Shown: positions 3,556 to 18,664 of the stretch, piece by piece | Layout of the letters: the number at the start of each line of letters is the position of its first letter | Position numbering within the stretch: the stretch's first letter is position 1 | Source of the DNA: Candidatus Obscuribacteraceae bacterium | GTDB taxonomy: Bacteria > Cyanobacteriota > Vampirovibrionia > Obscuribacterales > Obscuribacteraceae | Direction: 5' to 3' | Length of the DNA stretch: 64,000 bases | NCBI GenBank assembly: GCA_044226015.1 | Contig: JBGAHS010000010.1 | Location: forward strand, 256,001 to 320,000 | Made by a program: the position numbers and the translations under genes | Notes under the pieces: model-generated | Seen by the model: only the letters and a program-made list of their open reading frames with translations | Told to the model about the DNA's origin: nothing | Databases searched by the model: none

Positions 3556-5001
3556 TTACTGATTCATTTCTGAATTCTCAATTCGATCTGTTGCTTCTTT
3601 TGTCTCCATAGGTTTGAGATAAAACTCTTCGCATAATAGCAGACCTACTGATGTAATGGGAATTGCTATTAGTGCACCGGCTACACCAAGCAAAGTAGCG
3701 CCGATCAAGATGGAAAATAAAACGATCAGTGGATGCAGGTCAACACTCTTGCCGAGCAGTTGGGGAACGATGAAACTGCTCTCCACCCATTGCTCAATTC
3801 CATACAGTAAAAAGACGAGCCCCGCCAACACCGGTCCACCCCCAGTGTCTTGATTCAAGGCAACGAGAATAGCGCTGCCGGTTGCAAGAAGAGAACCTAC
3901 GAATGGAACAAGATTAAGCAGCCCTGCCATAATTCCTAGAATCAAAGCGTATTTTAATCGCAGAATGGAAAAGCCGATGAAAAGAAACGCAGCGACGCAG
4001 AGTGATACGAGCAACTGTCCACGCACGTATCCTCCCAGTCGATTCTCCAGAGGACGTATCAGCTGTGCCCATCTAGAGCGTTTGGGTTCGGGCAGCCATC
4101 GGAGTATTTTCGGCCAAAGCGATTCGGCTTCCACAACAAAGTATGCTGCAAGGAACAGCGTGAGCACCACATTTCCCAGCAAACCAAGAACGCCAGCCGT
4201 CAGGTCTATTGTTTTGGACAGCATTTTGCTTACGAAGTCTTGCAGAGTGTCGCTCTTCACTGAAAAGTTTTTGACGAGATGACTTGCAGCAGTAGATGTT
4301 GCTTGAATTTTGCTTACTGTTTCTGTTTTGCTATGTATTACTTTGTTGGAACCTTCCTCGTTTCTGTCTGAGCCAGTAAGTTCATCGCTATCAACCAGGC
4401 TTGATTTTGCGGACTTGCCTGAACTTTTACCAGGTTCATCAGAAGCAGATTTGGGGCTGGAAGTTTGACTTTCTTCAGCCGCGCTTTCTTTACTCGCGTC
4501 TTCGTTGCCAGATGCTTCTTTACTCGCGGCTTCTTTGTCAGATGCTTCTTTGACAGATGCGTCTTTGCCTGTGCTTTCGGTCTTCGAGTCTGGTGATTTT
4601 TCCGGTTCCGAACCAGTCGTTGTCAGCTTACTGTTTCCCGATGGGAGTGCTTTCGCGTTCTCAACCAAAACTGCTGCTTTGTCTAAATAGGTTGGAAGAT
4701 TGTCATACAATTGACCTGCTTCCTCTCTAATTGTGGGTACGGCTGATATTGCTAGAAAAATGTAGATCCCCATTGTAATCAGATACATGCAGAGCACCGT
4801 AGCAATGCGCGGAACTTTTCGTGCTTGTCCCCACTCGGCCACGGGAGACATTGCTGACGCGATGGTCAAAGCAAAAATGAGGCAAATAATCAGCACCTTC
4901 AACTCAATGGCGATGTAGATAAAGAGTGCTGCAAGTAGGGCGAAAAGTACAGTTTTCAGCGCAATAGCAGTTGTTTGATTTTTCTCCGTCGGGCTGAGCA
5001 T
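3556..5001 (-). CDS. AI-2E (UPF0118) family transporter with a long disordered insertion
   Basis: Multiple TM segments and motifs YVRGQ, LNLVPFVG, PQLLGKSVDLHP and GALIAIP. S/E/K-rich insert after the third TM. Confidence 0.9.
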   Translation of the reverse strand: MLSPTEKNQTTAIALKTVLFALLAALFIYIAIELKVLIICLIFALTIASAMSPVAEWGQARKVPRIATVLCMYLITMGIYIFLAISAVPTIREEAGQLYDNLPTYLDKAAVLVENAKALPSGNSKLTTTGSEPEKSPDSKTESTGKDASVKEASDKEAASKEASGNEDASKESAAEESQTSSPKSASDEPGKSSGKSAKSSLVDSDELTGSDRNEEGSNKVIHSKTETVSKIQATSTAASHLVKNFSVKSDTLQDFVSKMLSKTIDLTAGVLGLLGNVVLTLFLAAYFVVEAESLWPKILRWLPEPKRSRWAQLIRPLENRLGGYVRGQLLVSLCVAAFLFIGFSILRLKYALILGIMAGLLNLVPFVGSLLATGSAILVALNQDTGGGPVLAGLVFLLYGIEQWVESSFIVPQLLGKSVDLHPLIVLFSILIGATLLGVAGALIAIPITSVGLLLCEEFYLKPMETKEATDRIENSEMNQ

Positions 5002-5078: not shown

Positions 5079-6299
5079 TCATTTCTCGGATGATATCAGT
5101 TGAACCGCATAATCCAGAGCATCATTAACGTCTGGGAAAATCCCCCTGCATAATGGTCGAAGTGCGTTCTGTTTATTTTCGTCTCTGGCAATACCGAACG
5201 CTACAACATCAACTTCCATATTCGCTGCTTTCAATAATTCAGGAAGCCTTACCATAGGTTTGATTCCTGAAATCGTGTCTTCAAAAACATAGATTCTGAA
5301 CCGCTTTGAGCCGCTGAGATCGCGCAATTCCTGAGCGTCTCCGCTTCGGGTTGCGCGATAGGCTAAATTCAAAGTTCTGCTGTCTCCCGTGTTGAGCAGA
5401 GCAGCAAGAAACGCAGAAAGTGAATGGGTCAAATTCGGTTTAGTTAGCGCTTCTGATTTCTCATCGTGCTGAGCTGCTAACCATTCCATGCTTCCCATTC
5501 CTACTAGTGGGAAAATGTCAAGCTTCGCTGCTTGAGCTGCTATTTCGGCTTCAGGAGAATATCCCACTGTGTTGTCTATGTCGGGCGGAGGATGACTGGG
5601 TCTTGCAGTGTAAATTGCAACTCGAATTCGTTTGTCCAGGCTGAGTGCTTTGAGTTTCTCGCTGCTTGAGCTTGTCATCAAAACCTCATCAATTGTTTTC
5701 AACAATGATGGACCTTCATATGAACTGCCCAATCCGTAAGTCGAAGTGAAGTCGCTTCCTAGAATAATGTTTTGGAAAATTCTCGTTCCAAAGCTGTTGT
5801 ATGGCGAGCGCGTGTCGCTCATGAAACCATTTATTAGCGCAGAAAAAAACGCCTGGTTCCTATTACCCGAGAGTCCCTCAATCAAGATTTCTGAGAGGAG
5901 GTCTGGTGGATGACTGCTTTCACCGTGGTTTCGATAGTATTCTGCCAGGCTGATATAGTCGGGGCGGGGAGCACAAGGCGTCAGCGAAATTAGCTTGGAA
6001 AGCGCTTGTTCAGCAGTCAGCTCTATTTCTGTCGATTCTATTGATACTGTATTCAACTGCTCTGCGCAGTTTTTCAAAATTGCTGCAAATGCGATGTTTG
6101 TTATGTCCCACACATCGTGAATGCCCGTTGATTCCATGTGGGCAATTTCTTCATCACTCAAAATGAGTTCCTCAGAATTTTGAATTCCGGCAAGCTTACA
6201 GAGAAACTTCAAGCTGCTGTTTATGCCGACTTTGTACGCCAGTGGCGAAACAATGACACCATCTACGTCAAACAAGAATATGTGCTCAAAGTCGGTCAT
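5079..6299 (-). CDS. HAD-superfamily phosphatase with a large cap (candidate histidinol-phosphate phosphatase)
   Basis: Motif I FDVDGV, II YTAR, III KP, IV FEDTISG. Starts 16 nt after the kinase-like gene. Confidence 0.75.
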   Translation of the reverse strand: MTDFEHIFLFDVDGVIVSPLAYKVGINSSLKFLCKLAGIQNSEELILSDEEIAHMESTGIHDVWDITNIAFAAILKNCAEQLNTVSIESTEIELTAEQALSKLISLTPCAPRPDYISLAEYYRNHGESSHPPDLLSEILIEGLSGNRNQAFFSALINGFMSDTRSPYNSFGTRIFQNIILGSDFTSTYGLGSSYEGPSLLKTIDEVLMTSSSSEKLKALSLDKRIRVAIYTARPSHPPPDIDNTVGYSPEAEIAAQAAKLDIFPLVGMGSMEWLAAQHDEKSEALTKPNLTHSLSAFLAALLNTGDSRTLNLAYRATRSGDAQELRDLSGSKRFRIYVFEDTISGIKPMVRLPELLKAANMEVDVVAFGIARDENKQNALRPLCRGIFPDVNDALDYAVQLISSEK

Positions 6300-6315: not shown

Positions 6316-7653
6316 TTAGTTTGGCTCGGTAAAGATATCGGATACTATCTCTGTGAATTTATTTTGTCCAGTGTGCTTGATGGAACCGAGAGCGATCGCG
6401 AGGGCTAGACCCAGCCATTTTATTGATTGCGGGTAGCGTTCTGCGAGTGTTCCATTTGGCACGTAATCAGCAAACAAATTTACAGTGAGGAAGGGACAAC
6501 AAAATAAAGAGCAGTGTAAATATTCCTTCCAATTTGCAGGAAGCAAATTTTTGCTCTTAAGCAGTCCAATCGTCGGTTGCAATAAGTGTGCTTTCTTTGC
6601 AGAAAGGTGTTGCAGCCTCAGAGAACTAGGGCAGAAATCGTGCTCTATGGTTATACGCTTGTTTTCGATCTCTGCGTTGAGAGTGATTTCACCAGCTACC
6701 TGCTCGGGGAAGTACATCCATCTAGCAAATATGTTGTGAAACAGTGGCTTCGTTAAGTCAAGGAGTGCATTGTGTCGACCGGCGAAGGCTGGGTCAAACA
6801 TCTTCAACTCGTGGTTTTGTCCGACCAGGAATATATTGCCATTATGAGCATCTCCGTGTCCCACAACAGTGGCAGTCATCTCTTCTGGCGCATTTTCGGG
6901 AGTGAGAAGCTGGACGCTGCGTTCGATTATTTTTGCAAGAGTATCTTCGTAGCTCACTCCATTGATTGTCCAGGTGCAGTCAGCAAGCTGTTCAAAGTTA
7001 ATGCTTCTTTCTTTGAGCGTGATGGCTTTGCTTTTGTAAAACAGCCCCAGTCGCCCATCTGCTCGGAGGCGATGTGCGAAGAGCTGGTTTATCGGAGCGC
7101 TGGACTGTTTAGATTGCGCTGTAAGTTCGAGCGATTTCTCGTAAATTGAAAATACCTGTTTCTCAAGTTCAATTTGTCCATCGAGATATGTTTCTGTCTT
7201 ATTGCTCTTGTTATTTTCTGAACTCGGATGAGAATTGGAATTAGAGCCAGCGCCCGATTCGTTGCCCTGTGAATTCTTGAGGATGATGTCCTCTGACTCT
7301 TTCAGCTTGTCGAAGAGCGTAGGGTAGGTCAGAATTTCATAAAGCGCAATTTGTTTTCCGGGTCTATGTTGAATTTGTTTAGCCGAAACTACTGGATATC
7401 CCGCTTCTGCCAGTGATTTTGCATTGTAGTACTCCGAGACTTGCTCGTTTTCTTCAACGTGAGTCTTGAAGAATACTCTTTCATTATTTGAGTATGTTAT
7501 AAATCCATTTATGGAGTTGAGGGACTCCGGTCTTGGAGTCAACTCGACCTTCGTTATTTCGGTGTCTTCGTTTTCTTGTAAAAACCTGAGTAGTTCCAGT
7601 TCCGCTCGCTGTTTCTCACTAAACTGCAATTTCTGAATCTCTAGAAGTTGCAT
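6316..7653 (-). CDS. Aminoglycoside-phosphotransferase/choline-kinase-fold protein
   Basis: FFKTH (ATP-binding Lys), HGDAHNGN catalytic loop, FDPAFAG metal-binding loop. Confidence 0.75.
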   Translation of the reverse strand: MQLLEIQKLQFSEKQRAELELLRFLQENEDTEITKVELTPRPESLNSINGFITYSNNERVFFKTHVEENEQVSEYYNAKSLAEAGYPVVSAKQIQHRPGKQIALYEILTYPTLFDKLKESEDIILKNSQGNESGAGSNSNSHPSSENNKSNKTETYLDGQIELEKQVFSIYEKSLELTAQSKQSSAPINQLFAHRLRADGRLGLFYKSKAITLKERSINFEQLADCTWTINGVSYEDTLAKIIERSVQLLTPENAPEEMTATVVGHGDAHNGNIFLVGQNHELKMFDPAFAGRHNALLDLTKPLFHNIFARWMYFPEQVAGEITLNAEIENKRITIEHDFCPSSLRLQHLSAKKAHLLQPTIGLLKSKNLLPANWKEYLHCSLFCCPFLTVNLFADYVPNGTLAERYPQSIKWLGLALAIALGSIKHTGQNKFTEIVSDIFTEPN

Positions 7654-7688: not shown

Positions 7689-9017
7689 CTAGACGCCTGT
7701 TTTGTCGAAGCGAATGTCAACGCTGCGCTTGTGTGCATCAAGACCTTCTACGGTAGCGATTGTCTGCACAATCGGGCGCAGGCGCTCAAGTCCTTTCTTC
7801 GTCAATGTCGAGTACTGAACTCGCTTCATGAAAGTCCAGACTCCGACTGCTGATGTTTGCCTTGCCCAGCCGCTGCTGGGAAGTACGTGGTTAATGCCGG
7901 TGGCATAATCACCGGTCGCGACCGGATTGTAGTAGCCTAAAAACGCCGAGCCGGCATTCTCTATTTTTTCTAGCGTAGCTTCCGGTTTTTCCGTGAGTAT
8001 TTCAAGATGTTCAGGCGCATACTCGTTTGTGAAATCGATGGACTTGTCTACAGATTTTGTGACTACGATTGCGCTGTAGTTTGCCAGGGCAGTCTCAATA
8101 TACTTCTGACGGCTAAGTTGCTGATACTGCTTCTCTACTTCAGCTTGTGTCAGCTTTGCCAACTCCATTGATTCCGTAACTAGAACACCGGCAGAGTCTG
8201 GTCCGTGTTCGGCTCTAGCGAGAATGTCGGCTGCGCAATATTTTGCCTTAGTAGCAAGGTCAAGCTCGCTTGTGGTGCTGCCATCGGCCAAAATGATAGC
8301 TTCACTAGGACCCGCTGGCATATCGATGCCTACCTTGCTCTGACAAAGAATCTTGGCGGCGGTGACGTATGGGCTGCCTGGTCCAGCAATGATCTGCACC
8401 GGTGCTATCGTCTTCGTGCCGTAGGCCATAGCTGCAATTGCTTGCGCTCCACCTACCCGATAGATTTCACTGACACCACACTCATTTGCTGCGATGAGAA
8501 CCTCGTACCCTTTGCCCCTTGGTGAAATGCAAGAGACTATGCGTTTGCACCCGGCTGTTTTGGCTGCGATTGCCAGAATTTGTTGCACTGTAGGAAACGG
8601 GTTTTTTCCGCCTGGTACATAGAGTCCGGCAGATTCTATCGCTGTCCACTTCTCACCAACTGTAATACCATCTTCCAGTTGCTTTTCCCAGTTTGGAACT
8701 TGCTCTTTTTGGAGTTCATGAAAGCGCCGAGCTAACGAAATTTGTTCCTTGATTTTTTCGATTATTTGTTTGTCTGTGTTCGCGTAAGCCTCATCGATGT
8801 CTGCTTTACTAACAACCAACTTTGACTGTTCATATTCAGTGTCGTCCCATTCTCTGGTGAAGCGAACCAGTGCTTCGTCACCGTGCACACGCACTTCTTG
8901 TATGATCTCCTCGACTTTTGGTTTTACATTATCTATGTCCTGGTTTGCGCGCTGCATCACCTTTTCCATTTCAGCTGCAGAGCTTTTATCCAGTTCGTAT
9001 ATTTTGATCATGTTCAT
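7689..9017 (-). CDS. hisD: Histidinol dehydrogenase (divergent)
   Basis: Motifs YVPGG, GGAQAIAA, IDMPAGPSE, AEHG, APEHL, GDY, NHVLP and EGLDAH. Confidence 0.92.
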   Translation of the reverse strand: MNMIKIYELDKSSAAEMEKVMQRANQDIDNVKPKVEEIIQEVRVHGDEALVRFTREWDDTEYEQSKLVVSKADIDEAYANTDKQIIEKIKEQISLARRFHELQKEQVPNWEKQLEDGITVGEKWTAIESAGLYVPGGKNPFPTVQQILAIAAKTAGCKRIVSCISPRGKGYEVLIAANECGVSEIYRVGGAQAIAAMAYGTKTIAPVQIIAGPGSPYVTAAKILCQSKVGIDMPAGPSEAIILADGSTTSELDLATKAKYCAADILARAEHGPDSAGVLVTESMELAKLTQAEVEKQYQQLSRQKYIETALANYSAIVVTKSVDKSIDFTNEYAPEHLEILTEKPEATLEKIENAGSAFLGYYNPVATGDYATGINHVLPSSGWARQTSAVGVWTFMKRVQYSTLTKKGLERLRPIVQTIATVEGLDAHKRSVDIRFDKTGV

Positions 9018-9022
9018 AACCT

Positions 9023-10258
9023 CTAGTTCTTAAGGGCGAATTTTTCAAGTCGATTGCAAGCTTCCATGAGTTCGTCCTCTGCTGCTCCGAAAGAAAGTCG
9101 AATATGTTGTTCTCCGGTGGGACCAAAGGCAGCACCTGGCACTGTGATTACCTTGCCTTCCTTGAGTAATCTGACTGCATAGTCTATCGATGCTGCTCCA
9201 GAATTTATTTTCGGAAAAACGTAGTAACCACCCTGTGGTTGGTTGTAACTAAAAATATTGCTCAATCTGTCGAGCCTTTCGCAAACAAGGTCGCGTCGCT
9301 GCTTGAGCGCATCGCAGAGTTTCTGGATGCTCTTATCACCTTCGCCGTCTTTACCATTTGTAGCTTTCAGTGCGGCAAGAGCTGCAAACTGTGAAATTGT
9401 AGGAGCGCAAATGGCAAATGTGTCGTGAACCTTCAATACTTGTTGGAGAATGCGTTTGCTTGTATACATGAAGCCTACTCGCCAGCCTGTCATGCAATAG
9501 CGCTTTGAAAAACTGCAAGCTGCAATAATGTTTTCCTTGAGTTCCGGCATTGACATCAAGCTGAAGTATTCTGTCTCATCATAGATAAGGAAATCGTATG
9601 CTTCGTCGGTGACTATGAACAAGTTGTGTTCTAATGCTAGTTTTGCAATTGCCAGAAGATCCTCTTTTGCAAAAACTGTGCCTGTTGGATTGACAGGGTT
9701 GCATAAAACTATTGCTTTCGTTTTCTTGTTAATGGCTTTCTTGAAACCCTCAACATCTAGTTTCCAGCCGTCGTCTTCTCTCAATGGAACAAAGATGGGG
9801 GTGCCTTCAGCAAACAAAATCTGCTCAATATGTGACGCGTAGGTAGGCGTAGGAAGAATGACTTCATCACCTCTCTCTATGATGGTGCTGATGCCAGCTG
9901 CGAGAGCTTCCATACCACCACAAGAGATGAATATATTGTCGTCTGGGTCAACATCAACATTCTTTGTCCGTTTCAAGTCGGCTGCAATTGCCTGCTTCAG
10001 TTGCGGCATACCAGGTTGCATTGAGTATTTGCCTATCAGGCTGTCTTCCCGAGAAAGCTCTTCAATGACAGCCTGACGTATAAATTCTGGAGTGTTGAAT
10101 GATGGAATACCCTGCCCCAGCGTGACGCAACCACCAACTTGCGCTGCCAGAATGGGCATTTGTTTTATCGCGGAAACAGTTATTTGAGCCACTCGCTTAG
10201 CTATGCCAGCGTGATTCTCTTCCTGTCCTATGCCTTCGAAAACTGAACGACTCTGCAT
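9023..10258 (-). CDS. PLP-dependent class I aminotransferase (AspAT-like) inside the his operon
   Basis: NPVNPTG, DEAY and SFSKRYCMTGWRVG. ATG at 10258 overlaps the TAA of the upstream hisA-IE gene (TAATG). Confidence 0.9.
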   Translation of the reverse strand: MQSRSVFEGIGQEENHAGIAKRVAQITVSAIKQMPILAAQVGGCVTLGQGIPSFNTPEFIRQAVIEELSREDSLIGKYSMQPGMPQLKQAIAADLKRTKNVDVDPDDNIFISCGGMEALAAGISTIIERGDEVILPTPTYASHIEQILFAEGTPIFVPLREDDGWKLDVEGFKKAINKKTKAIVLCNPVNPTGTVFAKEDLLAIAKLALEHNLFIVTDEAYDFLIYDETEYFSLMSMPELKENIIAACSFSKRYCMTGWRVGFMYTSKRILQQVLKVHDTFAICAPTISQFAALAALKATNGKDGEGDKSIQKLCDALKQRRDLVCERLDRLSNIFSYNQPQGGYYVFPKINSGAASIDYAVRLLKEGKVITVPGAAFGPTGEQHIRLSFGAAEDELMEACNRLEKFALKN

Positions 10259-11493
10259 TAGCGACGTCTGCCTCCCAGTTCTGCTTCGATTTCCTTCCAT
10301 TCGATGCCTTCATCTACCGCCAAAACTGACATCATAAAAATAAGGTCTGCGATTTCCCAGCGGAGGTTGTCTTGTGATGTGTAGTTTAAGACCTCTTCTG
10401 ACTCCTCAGCAATTTTTGCAAGTAATTCCTTTCGGTCTGCAAACAGTTTGGCAGAATAAGAGTTCGGCAATGCATGCTTCTTGCGATTCTGTAGTGTTTC
10501 ATAAAGTTCGTGCAAGGTGAAATTTCGGTTCGCGCCAGCTCTGCCGAAGCAGCTATAGGTACCGTTATGGCAGGCGGCATCGGTTTGCTCAACTGTGAAC
10601 AAGATTGAATCTCTGTCACAATCAACACGGCATGATATGAGCTTTTGCGTGGAACCTGAAGTCAAACCTTTCTCCCAGATTTCCTTTCTTGAGCGGCTGT
10701 AGTAGATGCCTTTGCCCTCTGTTAAGGCTCGTTTGAGTGACTCAGCGTTGCTATAGGCAAGCATCAATACCTGTCCGGCTTTATCTTGGACAATCGTGGG
10801 GCAGAGACCGTCGCCTGCAAATTTGATAGCGCCGATTACTGACTCTGCCAGGTCGATTTTTCCGGTGTAAAGAGCCATTCCCACCTGAACATCAATGCCT
10901 AGCTTTGAAATCTCAACTATCTCTTCTGTTTTAGCGATGCCACCGGCTACGGTGAGTGGTGCCTTAATCTTTTCAATCAGTTCTTTAACTGCATCGATGT
11001 TCATTCCTCCCATGCCACCTTCGTCTTCTATGAAGGTGCTGAGAAAGCCAGAACAAAATGGAGCTAGTCTTTCGGCTCTTTCTATGAGTGTTTCACCGGT
11101 TGGGTTGACCCATCCTTTATCATAGACTTCGCCTTTCTTCTGGTCTAGAGCAACCATAACTGAAGTCCGTGGAAGTTTGCTGAGAAATTCGGGCGTGGCT
11201 GCAGTTCCGATGATAACTTGCCTGGCCCCAGCTCTCAGAATCGCTCTTGCTGTTTCGTGGGTTCTTATGCCACCTCCAACACGCGCATCAGCAACCCGGC
11301 AGATTCTTTTGATAAGCTCGAGGTTGCTTCCCTTGCCTAACGCTGCATCCAGGTCAATAACAGCAATTTCGCCATATCTACTGAATTCTGCCGCTAATTC
11401 TACGGGGTCTCGCTCGCTCTGCAAGACGAATTCCTTGCCTTGCTTTAACTGAACTGCTCGTCCATTTTGGATGTCTATACTTGGTATCAGCAT
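10258..11493 (-). CDS. hisA/hisIE: Fused HisA (ProFAR isomerase) - HisI (PR-AMP cyclohydrolase) - HisE (PR-ATP pyrophosphatase)
   Basis: HisA: IPSIDI, IDLDAA, GGGIR, VAGGI. HisI: YYSRSR..WEKGLTSG, DCDRD, ACHNG..SCF. HisE: SYSAKL..KIAEESEE..EIADL. Confidence 0.9.
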   Translation of the reverse strand: MLIPSIDIQNGRAVQLKQGKEFVLQSERDPVELAAEFSRYGEIAVIDLDAALGKGSNLELIKRICRVADARVGGGIRTHETARAILRAGARQVIIGTAATPEFLSKLPRTSVMVALDQKKGEVYDKGWVNPTGETLIERAERLAPFCSGFLSTFIEDEGGMGGMNIDAVKELIEKIKAPLTVAGGIAKTEEIVEISKLGIDVQVGMALYTGKIDLAESVIGAIKFAGDGLCPTIVQDKAGQVLMLAYSNAESLKRALTEGKGIYYSRSRKEIWEKGLTSGSTQKLISCRVDCDRDSILFTVEQTDAACHNGTYSCFGRAGANRNFTLHELYETLQNRKKHALPNSYSAKLFADRKELLAKIAEESEEVLNYTSQDNLRWEIADLIFMMSVLAVDEGIEWKEIEAELGGRRR

Positions 11494-12371
11494 ATTCTCA
11501 CCGGTATGTGTCTGGCTTTAATTTGTTCCTTCAATTTGTTTGGAGTCCAGCGACCATCATGAAAGATTGTCGCTGCTAAAGCTGCATCAGCAAATGCATC
11601 TTCGAAAACTTCGATGAAACTATCTGGACCCTGGGCGCCACCAGATGCAATGACAGGCACTGATAATTCAGACGCAAATTTTCGCACCATTTCAATATCA
11701 AAGCCCTTCTCTGTACCATCTCTGTCCCACGAGGTCAAAAGTATCTCGCCCGCTCCGCGCTTGACGCATTCCTGCGCCCATACAAAAGCATCTTTGTTTG
11801 TGTTAAGTCTGCCACCTTGAATGAGCACATCCCAGACAATTTCTTGAAAGGAATCTGCTTCTGTCTGGCTTGCGTCAGTCGTTGAGGTTATTTCGCCAAG
11901 CTTGCTCGATGGAGTCTTCGCATCTTCATTAGCCTCGCACCTGGCTTGCTTGCTTGCTCGTTTGCGCGCGTCTATTGCAAGCACGCAACATTGTGAACCG
12001 CAAGCTTCTGCTATTTCTGTGACGAGTTCTGGACGCTTTACTGCTGACGAATTAACCGAAACCTTGTCGGCACCACAGTTGAGAAGTGTCTTCACGTCGG
12101 AGAGCTGAGAGATGCCACCGCCTACGGTGAAGGGAATTGAAAGTTTGTGAGCCACCTTCTCCACAAGAGTGTATATTGTCTTTCGCTCTTCGTGAGAGGC
12201 TGTGATGTCCAGAAACATCAATTCATCTGCTCCATCTTCTTCATATCGTTGAGCAAGTTCGACAGGGTCACCCATATCACGCAAGTTCGTGAAGTTGACC
12301 CCTTTGACTGTGCGTCCATTGGCTACGTCGAGGCAAGGAATGATTCTTCGGCATAGATTATTTAGCGACAT
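11487..12371 (-). CDS. hisF: Imidazole glycerol phosphate synthase cyclase subunit
   Basis: RIIPCLDV, FLDITAS, GAGEILLTSWDRDG, IASGG. Carries an extra polar insertion of about 30 aa. Confidence 0.97.
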   Translation of the reverse strand: MSLNNLCRRIIPCLDVANGRTVKGVNFTNLRDMGDPVELAQRYEEDGADELMFLDITASHEERKTIYTLVEKVAHKLSIPFTVGGGISQLSDVKTLLNCGADKVSVNSSAVKRPELVTEIAEACGSQCCVLAIDARKRASKQARCEANEDAKTPSSKLGEITSTTDASQTEADSFQEIVWDVLIQGGRLNTNKDAFVWAQECVKRGAGEILLTSWDRDGTEKGFDIEMVRKFASELSVPVIASGGAQGPDSFIEVFEDAFADAALAATIFHDGRWTPNKLKEQIKARHIPVRIC

Positions 12372-12972
12372 TTTGCACCCACGTTCTTAAGAGTGTTTTG
12401 CCAAAACTGCTGCTTTTTTCTGGGTGAAACTGAAATGCCGTTATGTTGCCTGTCTTCACTGCTGCGCAGAACTCTACATGATAGTTAGAGCTATACAGAA
12501 TGGAATCAGCGTCTCTGGGTGCTGGGTAGTATGAATTTACAAAGTATACAAAGCCTGATTCGGGAAAGCCTTCATTGCCATTTTTTCGTTCTATCTGGTT
12601 CCAGCCAATTTGAGGCACTTTGCCTTCCTGGAATTTACGCACCGTGCCTGGTATCAGCCCGAGACCTGGCACTCCTTCGGCTTCTTCACTTGAGTCAAAG
12701 AGTATTTGCATTCCCACACAAATGCCCAGGTAGGGAGTACCTGCTTTTACGAGGTCTCTCACTCTGGCATCAAATGAGCTTGCTTTGAGATGCTGCATCA
12801 CAGGTCCAAACGCCCCTACTCCAGGCAGCAAGACCGGCTTGTCACCGCGTGGTGGATTTTCGAGGTCAGCCATGCTGAAATCCAGTTCCAGCATTTCAAG
12901 GCAGCGGCGAACACTGCCAATGTTTCCTCCACCCACGTCAACTAAATCGACTTTTGCCACCATCTTTCGCAC
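12358..12972 (-). CDS. hisH: Imidazole glycerol phosphate synthase glutamine amidotransferase subunit
   Basis: LPGVG, GICVGMQ, VPQIGWN and QFHPEKS. Confidence 0.97.
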   Translation of the reverse strand: MRKMVAKVDLVDVGGGNIGSVRRCLEMLELDFSMADLENPPRGDKPVLLPGVGAFGPVMQHLKASSFDARVRDLVKAGTPYLGICVGMQILFDSSEEAEGVPGLGLIPGTVRKFQEGKVPQIGWNQIERKNGNEGFPESGFVYFVNSYYPAPRDADSILYSSNYHVEFCAAVKTGNITAFQFHPEKSSSFGKTLLRTWVQNVAK

Positions 12973-12977
12973 CCAAC

Positions 12978-13862
12978 TCAGGTCACAATTTTCTCAAGCT
13001 TGTATTCCAAAATATCAGTGGCGCCTAGCTTGACTAATTTGGGAATGAGGTCTGGAACCTCTTTTGTGCTCACTGCAACTTTTACTGCATAGCCGTCACT
13101 GTTGTGTAGTTTGGAAACTGTGGGTGCTTTCATGCATGGCAGGTCGCCAACGATTTTGTCGAAGACATTTGCCGGCACATTCATTTCCAGAAGTACTTTT
13201 TGTCGTGCTTGCAAAGTACTCTTCATTAGCATGGTCATTTCTTCAAGCTTTTCGCGCTTTTCGGGATTGTCCAGAGCGGCTTTATTACAGATGAATCGCG
13301 TTGAAGAGCGCATCAACTCTGCCACTATTTCAAGTCGATTTTGACGCAGGGTTGCACCGCTTGATGTGTTGTCAATGATAATGTCAGCATCCTCTGGCGG
13401 CAGAGCCTCTGTGGCACCATAGGCGTGAACAAAGACTGCATCAAGGTTTTGACTCTTGATGTAGTCATTTGAAATTCGTTGATATTCGGAAGCTACAATG
13501 ATTTTTCTGCCGTTGAAGGCTTCCTTTCCTGCGCTAACGAGTTCTTCCGGCATCGCGGCAACGATACGTACAGGGTCAAAACCAAGGTCTAGCAATTCGA
13601 CAACGTCTGCATTTTGTTCGTAAATCCAATCGCGACCAGCGAAGCCGCAATCATGCCGCCCGAGAGCAACCAATCCGGGAATGTTCTTCGCTCGAAGCAT
13701 TTTTGTGACTATGAAAGAGTCGTTGCAAACGGGTCTGTAAGACCTGCCCGTCTGAGAAAAGCCGATTCCAATCTGTTCGAGCAGGTGCAGAACCTTTTCC
13801 TGAATTCGACCATTTGGAAGAGTTAGTTTGAGCTTGTCATCGTAATGCTTTTCTGTTGTCAT
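12978..13862 (-). CDS. hisG: ATP phosphoribosyltransferase, long form
   Basis: LPNGRI, GATEA, DIIIDNTSSGATLRQN and a C-terminal regulatory domain (APTVS...GATDIL). Confidence 0.95.
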   Translation of the reverse strand: MTTEKHYDDKLKLTLPNGRIQEKVLHLLEQIGIGFSQTGRSYRPVCNDSFIVTKMLRAKNIPGLVALGRHDCGFAGRDWIYEQNADVVELLDLGFDPVRIVAAMPEELVSAGKEAFNGRKIIVASEYQRISNDYIKSQNLDAVFVHAYGATEALPPEDADIIIDNTSSGATLRQNRLEIVAELMRSSTRFICNKAALDNPEKREKLEEMTMLMKSTLQARQKVLLEMNVPANVFDKIVGDLPCMKAPTVSKLHNSDGYAVKVAVSTKEVPDLIPKLVKLGATDILEYKLEKIVT

Positions 13863-13998: not shown

Positions 13999-16578
13999 TT
14001 GCTTTTACGGTGCTGCAGCGGGATGCGAATGTGCTATTTTTGTCAGAAGCGATTTGATGCACTGAAAGGCTGCTCTGTGACAACGCAATCCTCAAAGAAT
14101 CCCGAAGAGAAGAGCGCAGAGCAAGAGGCTCGTGAGGCTGAATTTGCCAGATATATGGTTTATCGTCAGCCCGCTGATGATGCCATGTCTGCTGAAGATT
14201 ACGAACTAGCCATGCGGCTTTATGCTCAAGGTGCCCGCAAAACAATTGCGGACGGGTTGGAAAAAGAGAATCGGGCAGCGACAATGTTTGCGGGTGCTTG
14301 TGCTTGCGCCATGCGAAGTGAAAAGTACTCGTTGGCGCTGCGTTATTTGCGAAACTCTTTTGAGCATCTCAGTGAAAACGAGCCAGTGTTTGCTGACACG
14401 ATGAATTATTTAATCGATCAGATACACTCGCTTCCATATTATCTGAAGACCTCGGCTCAACGCGAGCTACTTGAATCGATTAAGTCGGAATACTATCAGA
14501 AGTTCTCATCATGTTTGCGACGAGCGTTCTTCTCTGCCCAGAAGAAATTAGCTGCACAGGCGCCAGAAGGCGAGGCTGAGAAACGGAAGCTTCATGGTGT
14601 CGATGTCATCGATAAGTTTCCGTTTCTGGAAGACCTTTTCTCGAAAGTGACGCAGTCTTACATCAAAAAAGAATATCTTGCCGGGCAGAACTTTCTTCAA
14701 TTGGCGCTGCTCGATTTCAAGCTGCCGGAAGAATACTTTCGCAAGGACAGGCAGCAGCCAAACCGAATTCCATTCCGCGTGGGAAAGAACTATTATTTCC
14801 GCATGACAGATCCATCAACTCGCCATAGGATTGTGAGGTGTGCTCAAAACGTTAACAGAAAAGGGAAAATAATTCTTTCGGGACAGGAAGTTTGTCCCCC
14901 CGATTATTTCATCAACTCCGAGCGTTATAGAAAAGATGGTAAGTACATCGCTTATGGCATCTCGAAACATGGCTCTGATTGGGAGGAATGGTACGTAAAG
15001 TCGACTGTCACTGGACGCCAAATTCCGCATTTGAAATTGGACATTCGTCATGGTGGCATTATGTTTCATCCCGATGGAAAAGGACTTGTTTACTGGAAAC
15101 AGGGAAAACCTGAGAATGTCGAAGACCATTTGAAAGTCGTCGAGAAAAGTGTTCGAATATACTACAAACCCTTGCATCCGAAAGATTCAAAAGAGCATTT
15201 GATTTATGCTCCGAAGGATGAAGAAGTAGACCGAGTGAATTTGAATTTCCTTATGGACGGCAAATTCATGCTTATCCAAGAGAAGCGAAAAGGCGAGACA
15301 AAGGGACGCTTTTATATTCTGAAGGCACCGAAAGCGCAGCTGATACCACTCTTCGCAGGGAAAGCACGAGACTGCGTTTACATGGGGTGGCGGCGCAACA
15401 AGTTGTATTTCGAGACCAACGATGCGGCGCCTAATGGAAAGGTTTTTTCGCTTACATTAGATGATGGTGGCAAGCCCGCGAAAGTGGAAACTGTGATTCC
15501 TGAATGCGAAAAGGTAATCAGTGAAACTTATCTTTTAATGGATAGAATTATGGTCAACTATCTTGTTGACAGAAGCACCAAATCTGAAATTGTGAGCTAT
15601 CCACTTGATGGTGGTGCCGCAGTGACTGTTCCTCTGCCGGCTGAAGGGATAGTTGATAATCTTAGTTGCAGCTATGACGACAGCAACCTATTTTTTAGTA
15701 TCAATAGTTTCAGCAATGCTAGCAGCATTTTTTTGCACAATTTGAAATCGAGAAAGACACGCCTTTATTTCGCACCGACGGGACAGCCTTGCCGCGACCT
15801 GGTCAGTGAAGTTGTGAACGTGAAGAGTAAGGATGGCTCTATCGTTCCTATGTGGCTTGTCCACAGAAAAAAGGTGAAACTTGGACCCGACACACCTGTT
15901 CTGATGATGGTGTATGGTGGCTTTAATGTGCCATGCTTACCATATTGCAATTACGAAATTTTGAGTTGGACCGAAATGGGAGGCGTCTGGGCTCAGCCTT
16001 ATCTTAGAGGCGGCGGTGAGCTTGGCGAGCATTGGCATGAATCTGCTAAGAAGCTCAAGAAACAGAATACATTCGATGATGCAATTGCGTGCGCAAAATA
16101 TTTGATCGATAACAAGCTTGCAAGTCCCGCTAAACTAGCGGTAAAAGGCGGCAGCAATGGCGGGCTGACTGTGGCCGTTTTGCTAAATCAAGCCCCTGAG
16201 TGCTTTGCCGCTGCAATCGCAAGTAATGGGCTTTACGATATGCTCAAATTTCAAAATCACACTATAGGCTGGGCTTGGGAGTGTGATTATGGCAGCGTCG
16301 CGAAGAAGAAAGAGTTCCAGACCATATTCTCTTACTCGCCCATACATAATCTTCGAAAGGTCTCAAGATTTCCAGCTCTCTTATTGTGCGCTAGTGAAGG
16401 AGATGACCGTGTGCCGCCCTGGCACACAATGAAATACCTGGCTGAACTCAGGCAGCATGTACCAGCAGAGTCAATCTTAGTATTGCGAATCGAGCGCAAG
16501 AGTGGTCATGTAAGTCACCGTAGTAGCTGGGAGATTCGTGATCAGCAAGCGTTTTTGAAGCAAGTGCTCGGAATGTAG
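13999..16578 (+). CDS. Prolyl oligopeptidase (S9A) with N-terminal extension
   Basis: YGGFN, RGGGE, nucleophile GGSNGGL, DDRV and C-terminal GH. GTG at 14077 is a likelier start. Confidence 0.9.
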   Translation: MLLRCCSGMRMCYFCQKRFDALKGCSVTTQSSKNPEEKSAEQEAREAEFARYMVYRQPADDAMSAEDYELAMRLYAQGARKTIADGLEKENRAATMFAGACACAMRSEKYSLALRYLRNSFEHLSENEPVFADTMNYLIDQIHSLPYYLKTSAQRELLESIKSEYYQKFSSCLRRAFFSAQKKLAAQAPEGEAEKRKLHGVDVIDKFPFLEDLFSKVTQSYIKKEYLAGQNFLQLALLDFKLPEEYFRKDRQQPNRIPFRVGKNYYFRMTDPSTRHRIVRCAQNVNRKGKIILSGQEVCPPDYFINSERYRKDGKYIAYGISKHGSDWEEWYVKSTVTGRQIPHLKLDIRHGGIMFHPDGKGLVYWKQGKPENVEDHLKVVEKSVRIYYKPLHPKDSKEHLIYAPKDEEVDRVNLNFLMDGKFMLIQEKRKGETKGRFYILKAPKAQLIPLFAGKARDCVYMGWRRNKLYFETNDAAPNGKVFSLTLDDGGKPAKVETVIPECEKVISETYLLMDRIMVNYLVDRSTKSEIVSYPLDGGAAVTVPLPAEGIVDNLSCSYDDSNLFFSINSFSNASSIFLHNLKSRKTRLYFAPTGQPCRDLVSEVVNVKSKDGSIVPMWLVHRKKVKLGPDTPVLMMVYGGFNVPCLPYCNYEILSWTEMGGVWAQPYLRGGGELGEHWHESAKKLKKQNTFDDAIACAKYLIDNKLASPAKLAVKGGSNGGLTVAVLLNQAPECFAAAIASNGLYDMLKFQNHTIGWAWECDYGSVAKKKEFQTIFSYSPIHNLRKVSRFPALLLCASEGDDRVPPWHTMKYLAELRQHVPAESILVLRIERKSGHVSHRSSWEIRDQQAFLKQVLGM

Positions 16579-17590: not shown

Positions 17591-18664
17591 GTGAGGGTAT
17601 TTCTTTCAGTGAACAACTCTATTAACTCACCGCTGGAAATGGCTATGGATGCGCCTGTCCTGCATACATTTATTTCTTATCTGGCTGAAAAGAAAAAAGA
17701 ACTTGAGGACAATCCGAACGGGCACATCAAAATTCAACTAAATCGTGACTTTATCTGGCGCGTTAGAGAGTCGTTCAGGCAGAACATCCTTGATGGCGAG
17801 CGACACATGCATACTCTTGCGCACCTTCTTGCCACTCATTTGCTGGATGGGGAATTTGACCTGCACAGCAACGTAATCGGCATTTTGCCGGAAGGTGATC
17901 GTCCGTTCTTAATCAGGGAGAGAATCACACAGGAAACGTTGCTCTCCGTGCTAGATATTGATCTCGGTAATCACTTGCTAGATAACTTTCGCTATCAAAA
18001 AGACCGTGCTTGGCTGCCACTAAATTTGTCGGCAAACTTTGTCGAGTACATTCCTAAAGCTGAGACGCAGTGGAAAGTTAATCGGCTAACCAGCCGTGTC
18101 AAGGCTGAGGAAGAGCTTTGGAACAAAGTCGCGGATGAGTTGTTTCAGCTTGATAAATTGGTGAGCAAAGACAAGCACTTACGTCAGTACAGCAAATATG
18201 TGAAGGACATTTTTGGAATCAAGATTGTTTGTGAGGACGAACGCACGTGTTGGAAAGTCCATGAGATGCTCAAAGATCTCACAACTACTGTTCCTGTTGA
18301 GCACGCAGCTGAAGGAAACCCTGACTTCGGTGAGAAGTTGCTCCAATTCATAGAGACAAAAGATTATCTCACCTGCAATCCCAATGCCATGAAGAAAACG
18401 GGCTGGAAAGCAATAAAGAGTGTCGTTAAGTGGTGTGATCGCTTGTTCGAATTGCAAGTTCAACCGCTGAGCAATTACTACCTCGAACTCGACCACATGT
18501 CTGGACCTTCCCACAGTTCGTTTAAAAGTTTCCGAGACAAGATGAGAGACGATGTCTCTGAAAGAGTTCCACTCTATGGATTCTATCGCAACTTGCTCAG
18601 GACTCTGTTCATGGGCAGCAATATGTCATTTGAATATGATCAGGCATCTGTCGAGATCAAATAG
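17591..18664 (+). CDS. Divergent RelA/SpoT synthetase-domain (nucleotidyltransferase-fold) protein, stand-alone
   Basis: Ordered motifs RVKAEEELWNK, DIFGIKIVC, KDYL, GWKAIK and FELQVQP. TATAAT at 17561 upstream. Confidence 0.6.
   Translation: MRVFLSVNNSINSPLEMAMDAPVLHTFISYLAEKKKELEDNPNGHIKIQLNRDFIWRVRESFRQNILDGERHMHTLAHLLATHLLDGEFDLHSNVIGILPEGDRPFLIRERITQETLLSVLDIDLGNHLLDNFRYQKDRAWLPLNLSANFVEYIPKAETQWKVNRLTSRVKAEEELWNKVADELFQLDKLVSKDKHLRQYSKYVKDIFGIKIVCEDERTCWKVHEMLKDLTTTVPVEHAAEGNPDFGEKLLQFIETKDYLTCNPNAMKKTGWKAIKSVVKWCDRLFELQVQPLSNYYLELDHMSGPSHSSFKSFRDKMRDDVSERVPLYGFYRNLLRTLFMGSNMSFEYDQASVEIK

Follow-up and report, generated by a model that had tools for sequence, protein, structure and literature searches.

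A kinase-fold protein of his operons lacking IGP dehydratase probably replaces the HisB step and marks a second late route to histidine

The locus described here raises the question of how the HisB step of histidine biosynthesis is accomplished where the gene for IGP dehydratase (IGPD) is missing and a kinase-fold gene stands next to hisD. The window, i.e. the whole stretch of 64,000 nucleotides analysed from a Candidatus Obscuribacteraceae genome, contains an operon with the order hisG-hisH-hisF-hisA/IE-aminotransferase-hisD-kinase-HAD, from which IGPD is absent (Table 1). Every other his gene is present in the window genome (G000), and a search of this 92%-complete assembly for IGPD retrieved none (search control, 14/14). 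The first-pass annotation had proposed that the kinase acts on IGP as an ATP-dependent substitute for HisB, alone or with a PLP enzyme, or else serves as a salvage kinase for histidinol or imidazole-glycerol. Our analysis finds the substitution at the HisB step to be real and well supported, and the kinase probably marks a second late histidine route; overall, we give a probability of roughly 55% to the reading that the kinase does the job of IGPD, probably at the expense of ATP and probably within a re-ordered late pathway.

Table 1. Features of the his operon and neighbouring genes in the window.
Feature	Coordinates	Strand	Evidence
AI-2E family transporter carrying a long Ser/Lys/Glu insertion of low complexity, just beyond the operon	3556..5001		
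Large-cap HAD-family phosphatase	5079..6299	minus	DVDGV, T, K and ED motifs; no Pfam match
APH/choline-kinase-fold enzyme, 445 aa	6316..7653	minus	Motifs, model and fold searches, genome distribution
Variant histidinol dehydrogenase HisD*	7689..9017	minus	TIGR00069 over cut-off; alignment to solved HisD; Arg268
Class I PLP aminotransferase, AspC-like, not HisC; start uncertain	9023..10300	minus	PF00155; TIGR01141 125.8 bits, cut-off of 276.55 unmet
hisA-hisI-hisE fusion, 411 aa	10258..11493	minus	PF00977, PF01502 and PF01503
hisF	11487..12371	minus	TIGR00735 329.6 bits, over cut-off
hisH	12358..12972	minus	TIGR01855 187.8 bits, over cut-off
hisG, long-form ATP phosphoribosyltransferase	12978..13862	minus	PF01634 and PF08029; TIGR00070 over cut-off
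Prolyl oligopeptidase, extended N-terminally by ~190 residues and oriented divergently to hisG	13999..16578		
357-aa ORF, possibly with a nucleotidyltransferase/alarmone-synthetase domain	17591..18664		By-eye resemblance

The kinase ORF starts 35 bases past the hisD stop, and the HAD-like gene begins 16 bases beyond it. The FFK, HGDxHxxN and FDP motifs that had been described as intact directly after hisD were indeed found there (FFK, residues 61-63; HGDAHNGN, 266-273; FDP, 286-288), and they do not reflect chance because they are conserved across 134 aligned homologues: H266, D268, H270 and N273 never vary, K63 and D287 are found in 133/134 and 132/134, respectively, and the basic residues R195, R201 and K302 are also invariant or nearly so. 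Every one of the 145 copies that could be classified, of which 102 are biosynthetic and 43 catabolic, retains the four residues K63, D268, N273 and D287 (18 unclassified rows were excluded from the count). The homologue search gave 1744 matches among 8000 scored candidates, with 94 clusters at E up to 1e-30, and close relatives are labelled Melainabacteria/Obscuribacterales. A beta-3 lysine, an HGDxxxxN catalytic loop and a metal-binding aspartate define APH/choline-kinase-like small-molecule kinases, and all three are present. The protein scored 15.6 bits against the Pfam APH model (PF01636), under the gathering cut-off of 23.2, and a homologue with the same single-domain content (P0053) passes it at 25.8. 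The AlphaFold model (pLDDT 93.7, pTM 0.92) displays a two-lobed protein-kinase-like fold (Foldseek E 1e-6; VIA Z up to 15.3), matching APH/choline-kinase-like enzymes at Z values of about 13-15; the top structural matches are tied and therefore indicate no specific family. A PDB sequence search with the 134-row profile returned nothing significant, the ESM Atlas only unnamed clusters of the family itself, and NCBIfam holds no family for it. The kinase did not match the IGPD model PF00475 and has no His-His pair such as the twin (D/N)xHHxxE motifs of IGPD contain, showing a kinase fold instead. Judging from its conserved residues, the protein is likely to use ATP.

Genome distribution argues for a role at the HisB step. 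In an order-wide sample of 107 genomes, 53 gave an IGPD match, 14 (covering 8 genera) a kinase match and 66 a HisD match; among these 66, 14 had the kinase only, 50 had IGPD only, none had both and two, 65% and 71% complete, had neither. A profile search for the kinase in G013, G038, G039, G007 and G239, in a run without a positive control, found none. The kinase occurs in 11 and IGPD in 112 of 161 Chloroflexota genomes (the IGPD set including G182 and G314, which are flagged as unpublished and on which no conclusion depends), with no overlap. No IGPD gene was detected in any of 80 related kinase loci, nor in any of the 9 biosynthetic kinase loci from metagenomes. The genomes behind 50 of the 80 loci were tested (of the other loci, 11 come from the order surveyed above and 19 fell outside the size limit of the search), and IGPD was present in two of these 50 kinase genomes across phyla. 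One of them, G118 (Pseudanabaena), is a genuine case with both genes. The other, G107, was rejected as a true co-occurrence: its IGPD belongs to a second, complete operon, and the contig with the kinase shows the gene order and the HisD of the window's order, which makes a mis-bin likely. Among 151 cyanobacteria at least 95% complete, 150 have IGPD and two have the kinase, and the single IGPD-less genome, on which this sample was centred, is a kinase carrier. All five IGPD-less genomes checked possess hisF, and some cyanobacteria (G123 and G128, for example) combine hisF and the kinase with no IGPD and no other shared candidate gene. These are related, non-independent genomes, mostly incomplete assemblies, in which the exclusion pattern repeats in three phyla; because of this relatedness, Fisher p-values calculated for the exclusion are overstated. 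Hence the anti-correlation with IGPD that the first-pass annotation had proposed as a check was found (overlap in 0/14 kinase genomes of the order, 0/11 of Chloroflexota and 2/50 across phyla), and the genomic comparison showed no regular co-occurrence with canonical hisB. The kinase fills the IGPD gap in genomes having the other his genes and, because it is found almost only in his operons of genomes without HisB, it is very likely a replacement for the HisB step.

Some observations on these samples deserve mention on their own. HisD was not found in 41 of the order's 107 genomes, 4/7 genus mates at 70-91% completeness among them, a pattern of patchy histidine synthesis. Kinase-bearing cyanobacteria are common among the related loci, yet amount to 2/151 in the sample at least 95% complete; it might be speculated that hisB loss itself depresses their marker-based completeness. 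Gene order and HisD clade conflict with the record labels of L042 and L111 (Acidobacteriaceae and Pleurocapsa), probably through binning or labelling errors, and one genome with 7% contamination (G020; L030 and L035) carries two hisD-kinase copies of different sub-lineages.

Besides its distribution, the kinase has a characteristic neighbourhood. Some his gene accompanies it in 73/80 loci and hisD lies directly upstream in 52/80; hisD-kinase is the most constant gene pair. Cyanobacterial cassettes have the order hisD-kinase-HAD-hisC-like, and Ktedonobacteria and other Chloroflexota have hisZ-hisG-[HAD+kinase]-hisH-hisA-hisF, where the kinase occupies the position before hisH that hisB has in IGPD-using relatives. 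It fills the same slot in the CPR-like operons that make up most of the 9/80 metagenome loci of biosynthetic type, as judged by gene set, and in both groups a HAD phosphatase is often joined to it. HAD-kinase fusions, of which P0121 is one, were seen with at least three HAD types. The window HAD resembles the cyanobacterial cassette HADs in profile comparison (probability 95.4, E 2e-8), and its gene was found in the same 14/107 genomes as the kinase; the cassette HAD was not found in 4/5 kinase genomes queried. This protein may be an IGP or histidinol-phosphate phosphatase. HisN (IMPase) was discarded as a marker since the search was non-discriminating, 5/5 genomes matching and all under cut-off. 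The PLP enzyme is missing from the operon in G012, G016 and all Chloroflexota clusters, and its best NCBIfam match is a cyclodehydratase model, 100 bits under cut-off. Thus, the substitution for HisB put forward by the first-pass annotation stands on the exclusion with IGPD, and the PLP enzyme, absent from many kinase clusters, was dropped both as a constant partner and as an obligatory lyase. Among candidates for an eliminating partner only the variant HisD is near-constant, PLP and HAD partners varying among loci. As to genes around these operons, an AI-2E transporter gene also adjoins the operon in G063 and lies nearby in G065, and a Chloroflexota genome (G259) encodes a 654-aa HisD-IGPD fusion (L169:1447-3411).

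The constant partner of the kinase is a variant HisD (HisD*). In Medicago HisD, zinc is bound by Gln299, His302, Asp401 and His460, and His408 lines the site, as described in the available text of PMC5585171. The window HisD keeps the catalytic Glu-His and the zinc ligands His, Asp and His, and has Arg268 at the zinc-ligand Gln position of the solved enzymes. Sixty distinct HisD from kinase-holding loci comprise 19 with Arg and 41 with Glu accompanied by Asp→Asn and His→Ala, and a further 10 cassette-type HisD of kinase genomes all belong to the Glu type; kinase-linked HisD from genome loci thus have Arg or Glu at this position in 70/70, versus 2/44 of the others (37 Gln, 5 Asp or Asn, 2 Glu type). 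The HisD next to distant kinase copies have Arg or Glu in 40/40. In a quick tree of 66 selected sequences, the Gln-type HisDs of the IGPD users G013 and G039, plus that of G038, branch from within the Arg clade; both HisD trees were of this quick kind, in which reversion and repeated gain look alike, and the residue state tracks the partner rather than the tree. Two HisD genes occur in 21/21 kinase-bearing cyanobacteria tested versus 1/5 IGPD-only controls. The second copies from IGPD-less cyanobacteria lack zinc or catalytic residues in 9/10 cases, and that of G118, which keeps IGPD, is intact. Since the residue state follows the kinase and these second copies have decayed, we infer that the kinase route requires the variant HisD and not the standard one. 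A full-length native hisD is kept in IGPD-less cyanobacteria at L136-L140, L143, L144, L152, L154 and L158; the degraded native genes suggest a non-catalytic role or slow decay. According to the accessible portion of PMC11382572, the HisD paralogue HpsN acts as a diol oxidase with both Gln and Asp in place, and the change in HisD* therefore does not identify its substrate.

The aminotransferase is a less faithful partner, being AspC-like, degenerate or absent across kinase loci; an AspC-like enzyme is also found in 4/9 CPR-like loci. Mycobacterial HisC grips the substrate phosphate with two arginines, and the residues anchoring phosphate in HisC also anchor the carboxylate in the aromatic enzyme (both in the available part of PMC4703992). 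The first substrate-anion Arg and the lid Tyr are missing from 19/19 HisC-like proteins of cyanobacterial cassettes, and the Arg is kept in 25/26 HisC-like proteins from loci without the kinase. It is likewise kept in 8/9 HisC-like proteins of catabolic clusters and in L098, which weakens the aminotransferase argument for a re-ordered route. HisC scoring over cut-off is encoded elsewhere in the window genome and in 8/10 other kinase genomes tested, with none found in G151 and G156. The stand-alone HisC of the window genome was rejected as a pathway marker, given that it is also present in two genomes of the same genus without HisD. The window aminotransferase may well be an imidazole-pyruvate transaminase.

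Kinase copies are not confined to biosynthetic operons. Distant copies, with ~31% identity, were retrieved from 106 plasmid records, mostly rhizobial, and the pSymA cluster of S. meliloti consists of an SDR, an ABC importer, hisD, a zinc dehydrogenase, hutC, the kinase and a lactate-dehydrogenase-like gene. Fifty of the 80 metagenome loci are of this catabolic type, some with hutH and hutU and none (0/50) with a HAD gene, 21 of the 80 being too short or unclassified. These clusters preserve the same kinase active site together with an ABC importer, HisD*, two dehydrogenases, a lactate-dehydrogenase-like enzyme and hutC/H/U. In two genomes that gave no kinase match, G239 and G257, a diverged IGPD stands where the kinase would be in a cluster of this kind; kinase and IGPD-like proteins thus replace one another in biosynthetic and catabolic settings alike. 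The clusters point to an undescribed imidazole nutrient for rhizobia and soil bacteria; the accessible text of PMC8844928 gave no substrate for the S. meliloti transporter. Undescribed clusters with an ABC importer, HisD*, kinase, SDR, zinc dehydrogenase, FMN hydroxy-acid dehydrogenase and hutC/H/U were observed at L227:587-11415 and L245-L307. At L205:3681-9401 and L206:5870-12903, a diverged IGPD paralogue with an altered metal motif and no C-terminal Ser neighbours a Glu-type HisD, an ABC importer and an SDR. Four proteins of 660-720 aa (P0227, P0252, P0260 and P0267) have an extra N-terminal domain, a distant kinase domain and an altered motif after the metal Asp.

Substitutions in the partners suggest, at the level of sequence, that the kinase acts on a substrate other than IGP, and we regard a re-ordered route ending in imidazole-pyruvate as reasonably probable. 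The exact order HAD, HisD*, kinase, aminotransferase is more tentative. The HAD phosphatase would remove the terminal phosphate of IGP to give imidazole-glycerol, which HisD* would oxidise to imidazole-glycerate in analogy to HpsN acting on a diol; the kinase would then phosphorylate the ring-adjacent hydroxyl with ATP, the phosphate would depart aided by the imidazole ring to leave imidazole-pyruvate, and a general aminotransferase would convert the latter to histidine. IGPD takes off the same ring-adjacent hydroxyl via imidazolate and diazafulvene, as far as the text of PMC4509728 is available, and phosphorylation would turn this hydroxyl into a good leaving group. Such an order would explain all three contexts with one HisD* substrate, imidazole-glycerol, and a single anionic kinase substrate, imidazole-glycerate, would suit the invariant Arg/Arg/Lys. 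On the other hand, from chemical considerations a 3-phospho-2-hydroxy acid could shed CO2 instead, which counts against the proposed order, and precedent dehydrations by kinases rely on a separate eliminating enzyme in the accessible parts of PMC11342911 and PMC8449060; none is constant here but HisD*, which counts against our best explanation as well. We hold as an even bet the wider view that at least five phyla possess a second post-IGP route to histidine bypassing HisB, HisC and histidinol, with the kinase-HisD* pair also feeding imidazole-polyol catabolism via Hut in rhizobia and other bacteria.

Other readings have to be weighed against this one. The plain replacement in which the kinase turns IGP into imidazole-acetol phosphate, with transaminase, HAD phosphatase and HisD following in textbook order, was the reaction originally proposed for this gene, and it would account for the hisB slot and for HAD fusions mirroring bifunctional HisB; R195, R201 and K302 could hold the IGP phosphate, cassette HisC-like proteins pass TIGR01141 and the catalytic Glu-His is kept in HisD*. 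We rank it second and consider it rather unlikely because it leaves the altered HisD and aminotransferases unexplained: it provides no reason for HisD residue 268 to track the kinase, for the decay of native HisD in IGPD-less cyanobacteria, for the Arg loss in cassette HisC or for the same active site in importer clusters without a phosphatase. Somewhat less probable is that the kinase acts before HisD*, phosphorylating the ring-adjacent hydroxyl of IGP or imidazole-glycerol, and that HisD* itself brings about the elimination: its oxidation of C1 to the aldehyde would set off the loss of phosphate, and a second oxidation would yield imidazole-pyruvate; sharing its end with our best explanation, this sequence is counted within the weight given to the re-ordered route. 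It fits the constancy of the hisD-kinase pair and the kinase-plus-oxidoreductase precedent of LvaA/LvaC or ACAD10 in the available part of PMC11342911, and Arg268, or Asp→Asn with His→Ala, could free space for a phosphate. Nevertheless, G239 and G257 have the Glu/Asn/Ala HisD beside an IGPD-like gene and no kinase; therefore, the signature needs no kinase product.

Two further possibilities depart more widely from the preferred re-ordered route. A metal-dependent dehydratase built on the kinase fold, with no net use of ATP, could exploit the Asp/Asn/Asp metal site and the conserved H65, H270 and H306 as a lyase, and identity to solved kinases is 8-16%; the beta-3 Lys and the N-lobe SLNS loop, however, match the C-lobe in conservation, an indication of nucleotide binding that makes this option very unlikely. 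Least credible of all is a salvage kinase for histidinol or imidazole-glycerol unrelated to the absent IGPD, the alternative offered by the first-pass annotation, even if distant copies adjoin ABC importers on rhizobial plasmids and G118 holds both kinase and IGPD. Near-complete exclusion with IGPD in three phyla and genomes such as G123 and G128 speak against it, and it does not hold for the biosynthetic copies, since a kinase that produced IGP or histidinol phosphate in a cell lacking IGPD would run into a dead end or accomplish nothing.

To our knowledge, IGPD, a herbicide target, has been treated as the sole and universal answer to a chemically hard step. Our literature search, beyond whose reach most subscription papers lay, found no description of the kinase family or of the route. 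The GapMind 2026 survey of alternative amino-acid enzymes (PMC13759103) and a gut-microbiome reconstruction (PMC9026213) name no IGPD substitute in their accessible text, and the supplements of either could list one. The textbook histidine pathway would have to be altered to admit a second family and, probably, a second late route, and false calls of histidine auxotrophy would be corrected in some cyanobacteria, Chloroflexota, Melainabacteria and CPR-like genomes. It would also follow that hundreds of genes annotated as hisD may act on a different substrate.

Among known systems, PsiK, 5-methylthioribose kinase, N-acetylhexosamine 1-kinase and type II homoserine kinase share the fold at Z 14-15 over ~290-320 residues, solved small-molecule kinases showing rmsd of 5-7 Å and 10-13% identity to the model, with no sequence-level PDB match. 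Closer in logic are LvaA/LvaC and ACAD10/11, where a small-molecule kinase fold likewise activates a hydroxyl as leaving group and ACAD10 also joins HAD and kinase domains (available part of PMC11342911), the 25-hydroxysteroid kinase with similar hydroxyl activation (9fsg, Z 13.4; available part of PMC8449060) and lexapeptide LxmK/Y (9dk1, Z 14.6). These kinase-plus-elimination systems differ in their substrates, in identity of only ~10% and in having a separate lyase each, and none acts in the biosynthesis of an amino-acid ring side chain. HpsN, which with HpsO/HpsP serves DHPS catabolism, is a HisD paralogue converting a diol to a 2-hydroxy acid, and its accompanying oxidoreductases and transporter resemble the catabolic kinase clusters; unlike HisD*, it retains Gln and Asp as ligands, and it has a His motif of its own and a sulfonate substrate and works with no kinase in the portion of PMC11382572 available. 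IGPD itself (HisB; PF00475, EC 4.2.1.19) has an unrelated fold, being in the accessible text of PMC7284861 and PMC4509728 a Mn-dependent 24-mer with HHxxE motifs that proceeds through imidazolate and diazafulvene without ATP. Nonetheless, it is alike to the kinase in gene slot, in HAD fusions and in the net job that the latter would perform, and the distributions of the two are mutually exclusive.
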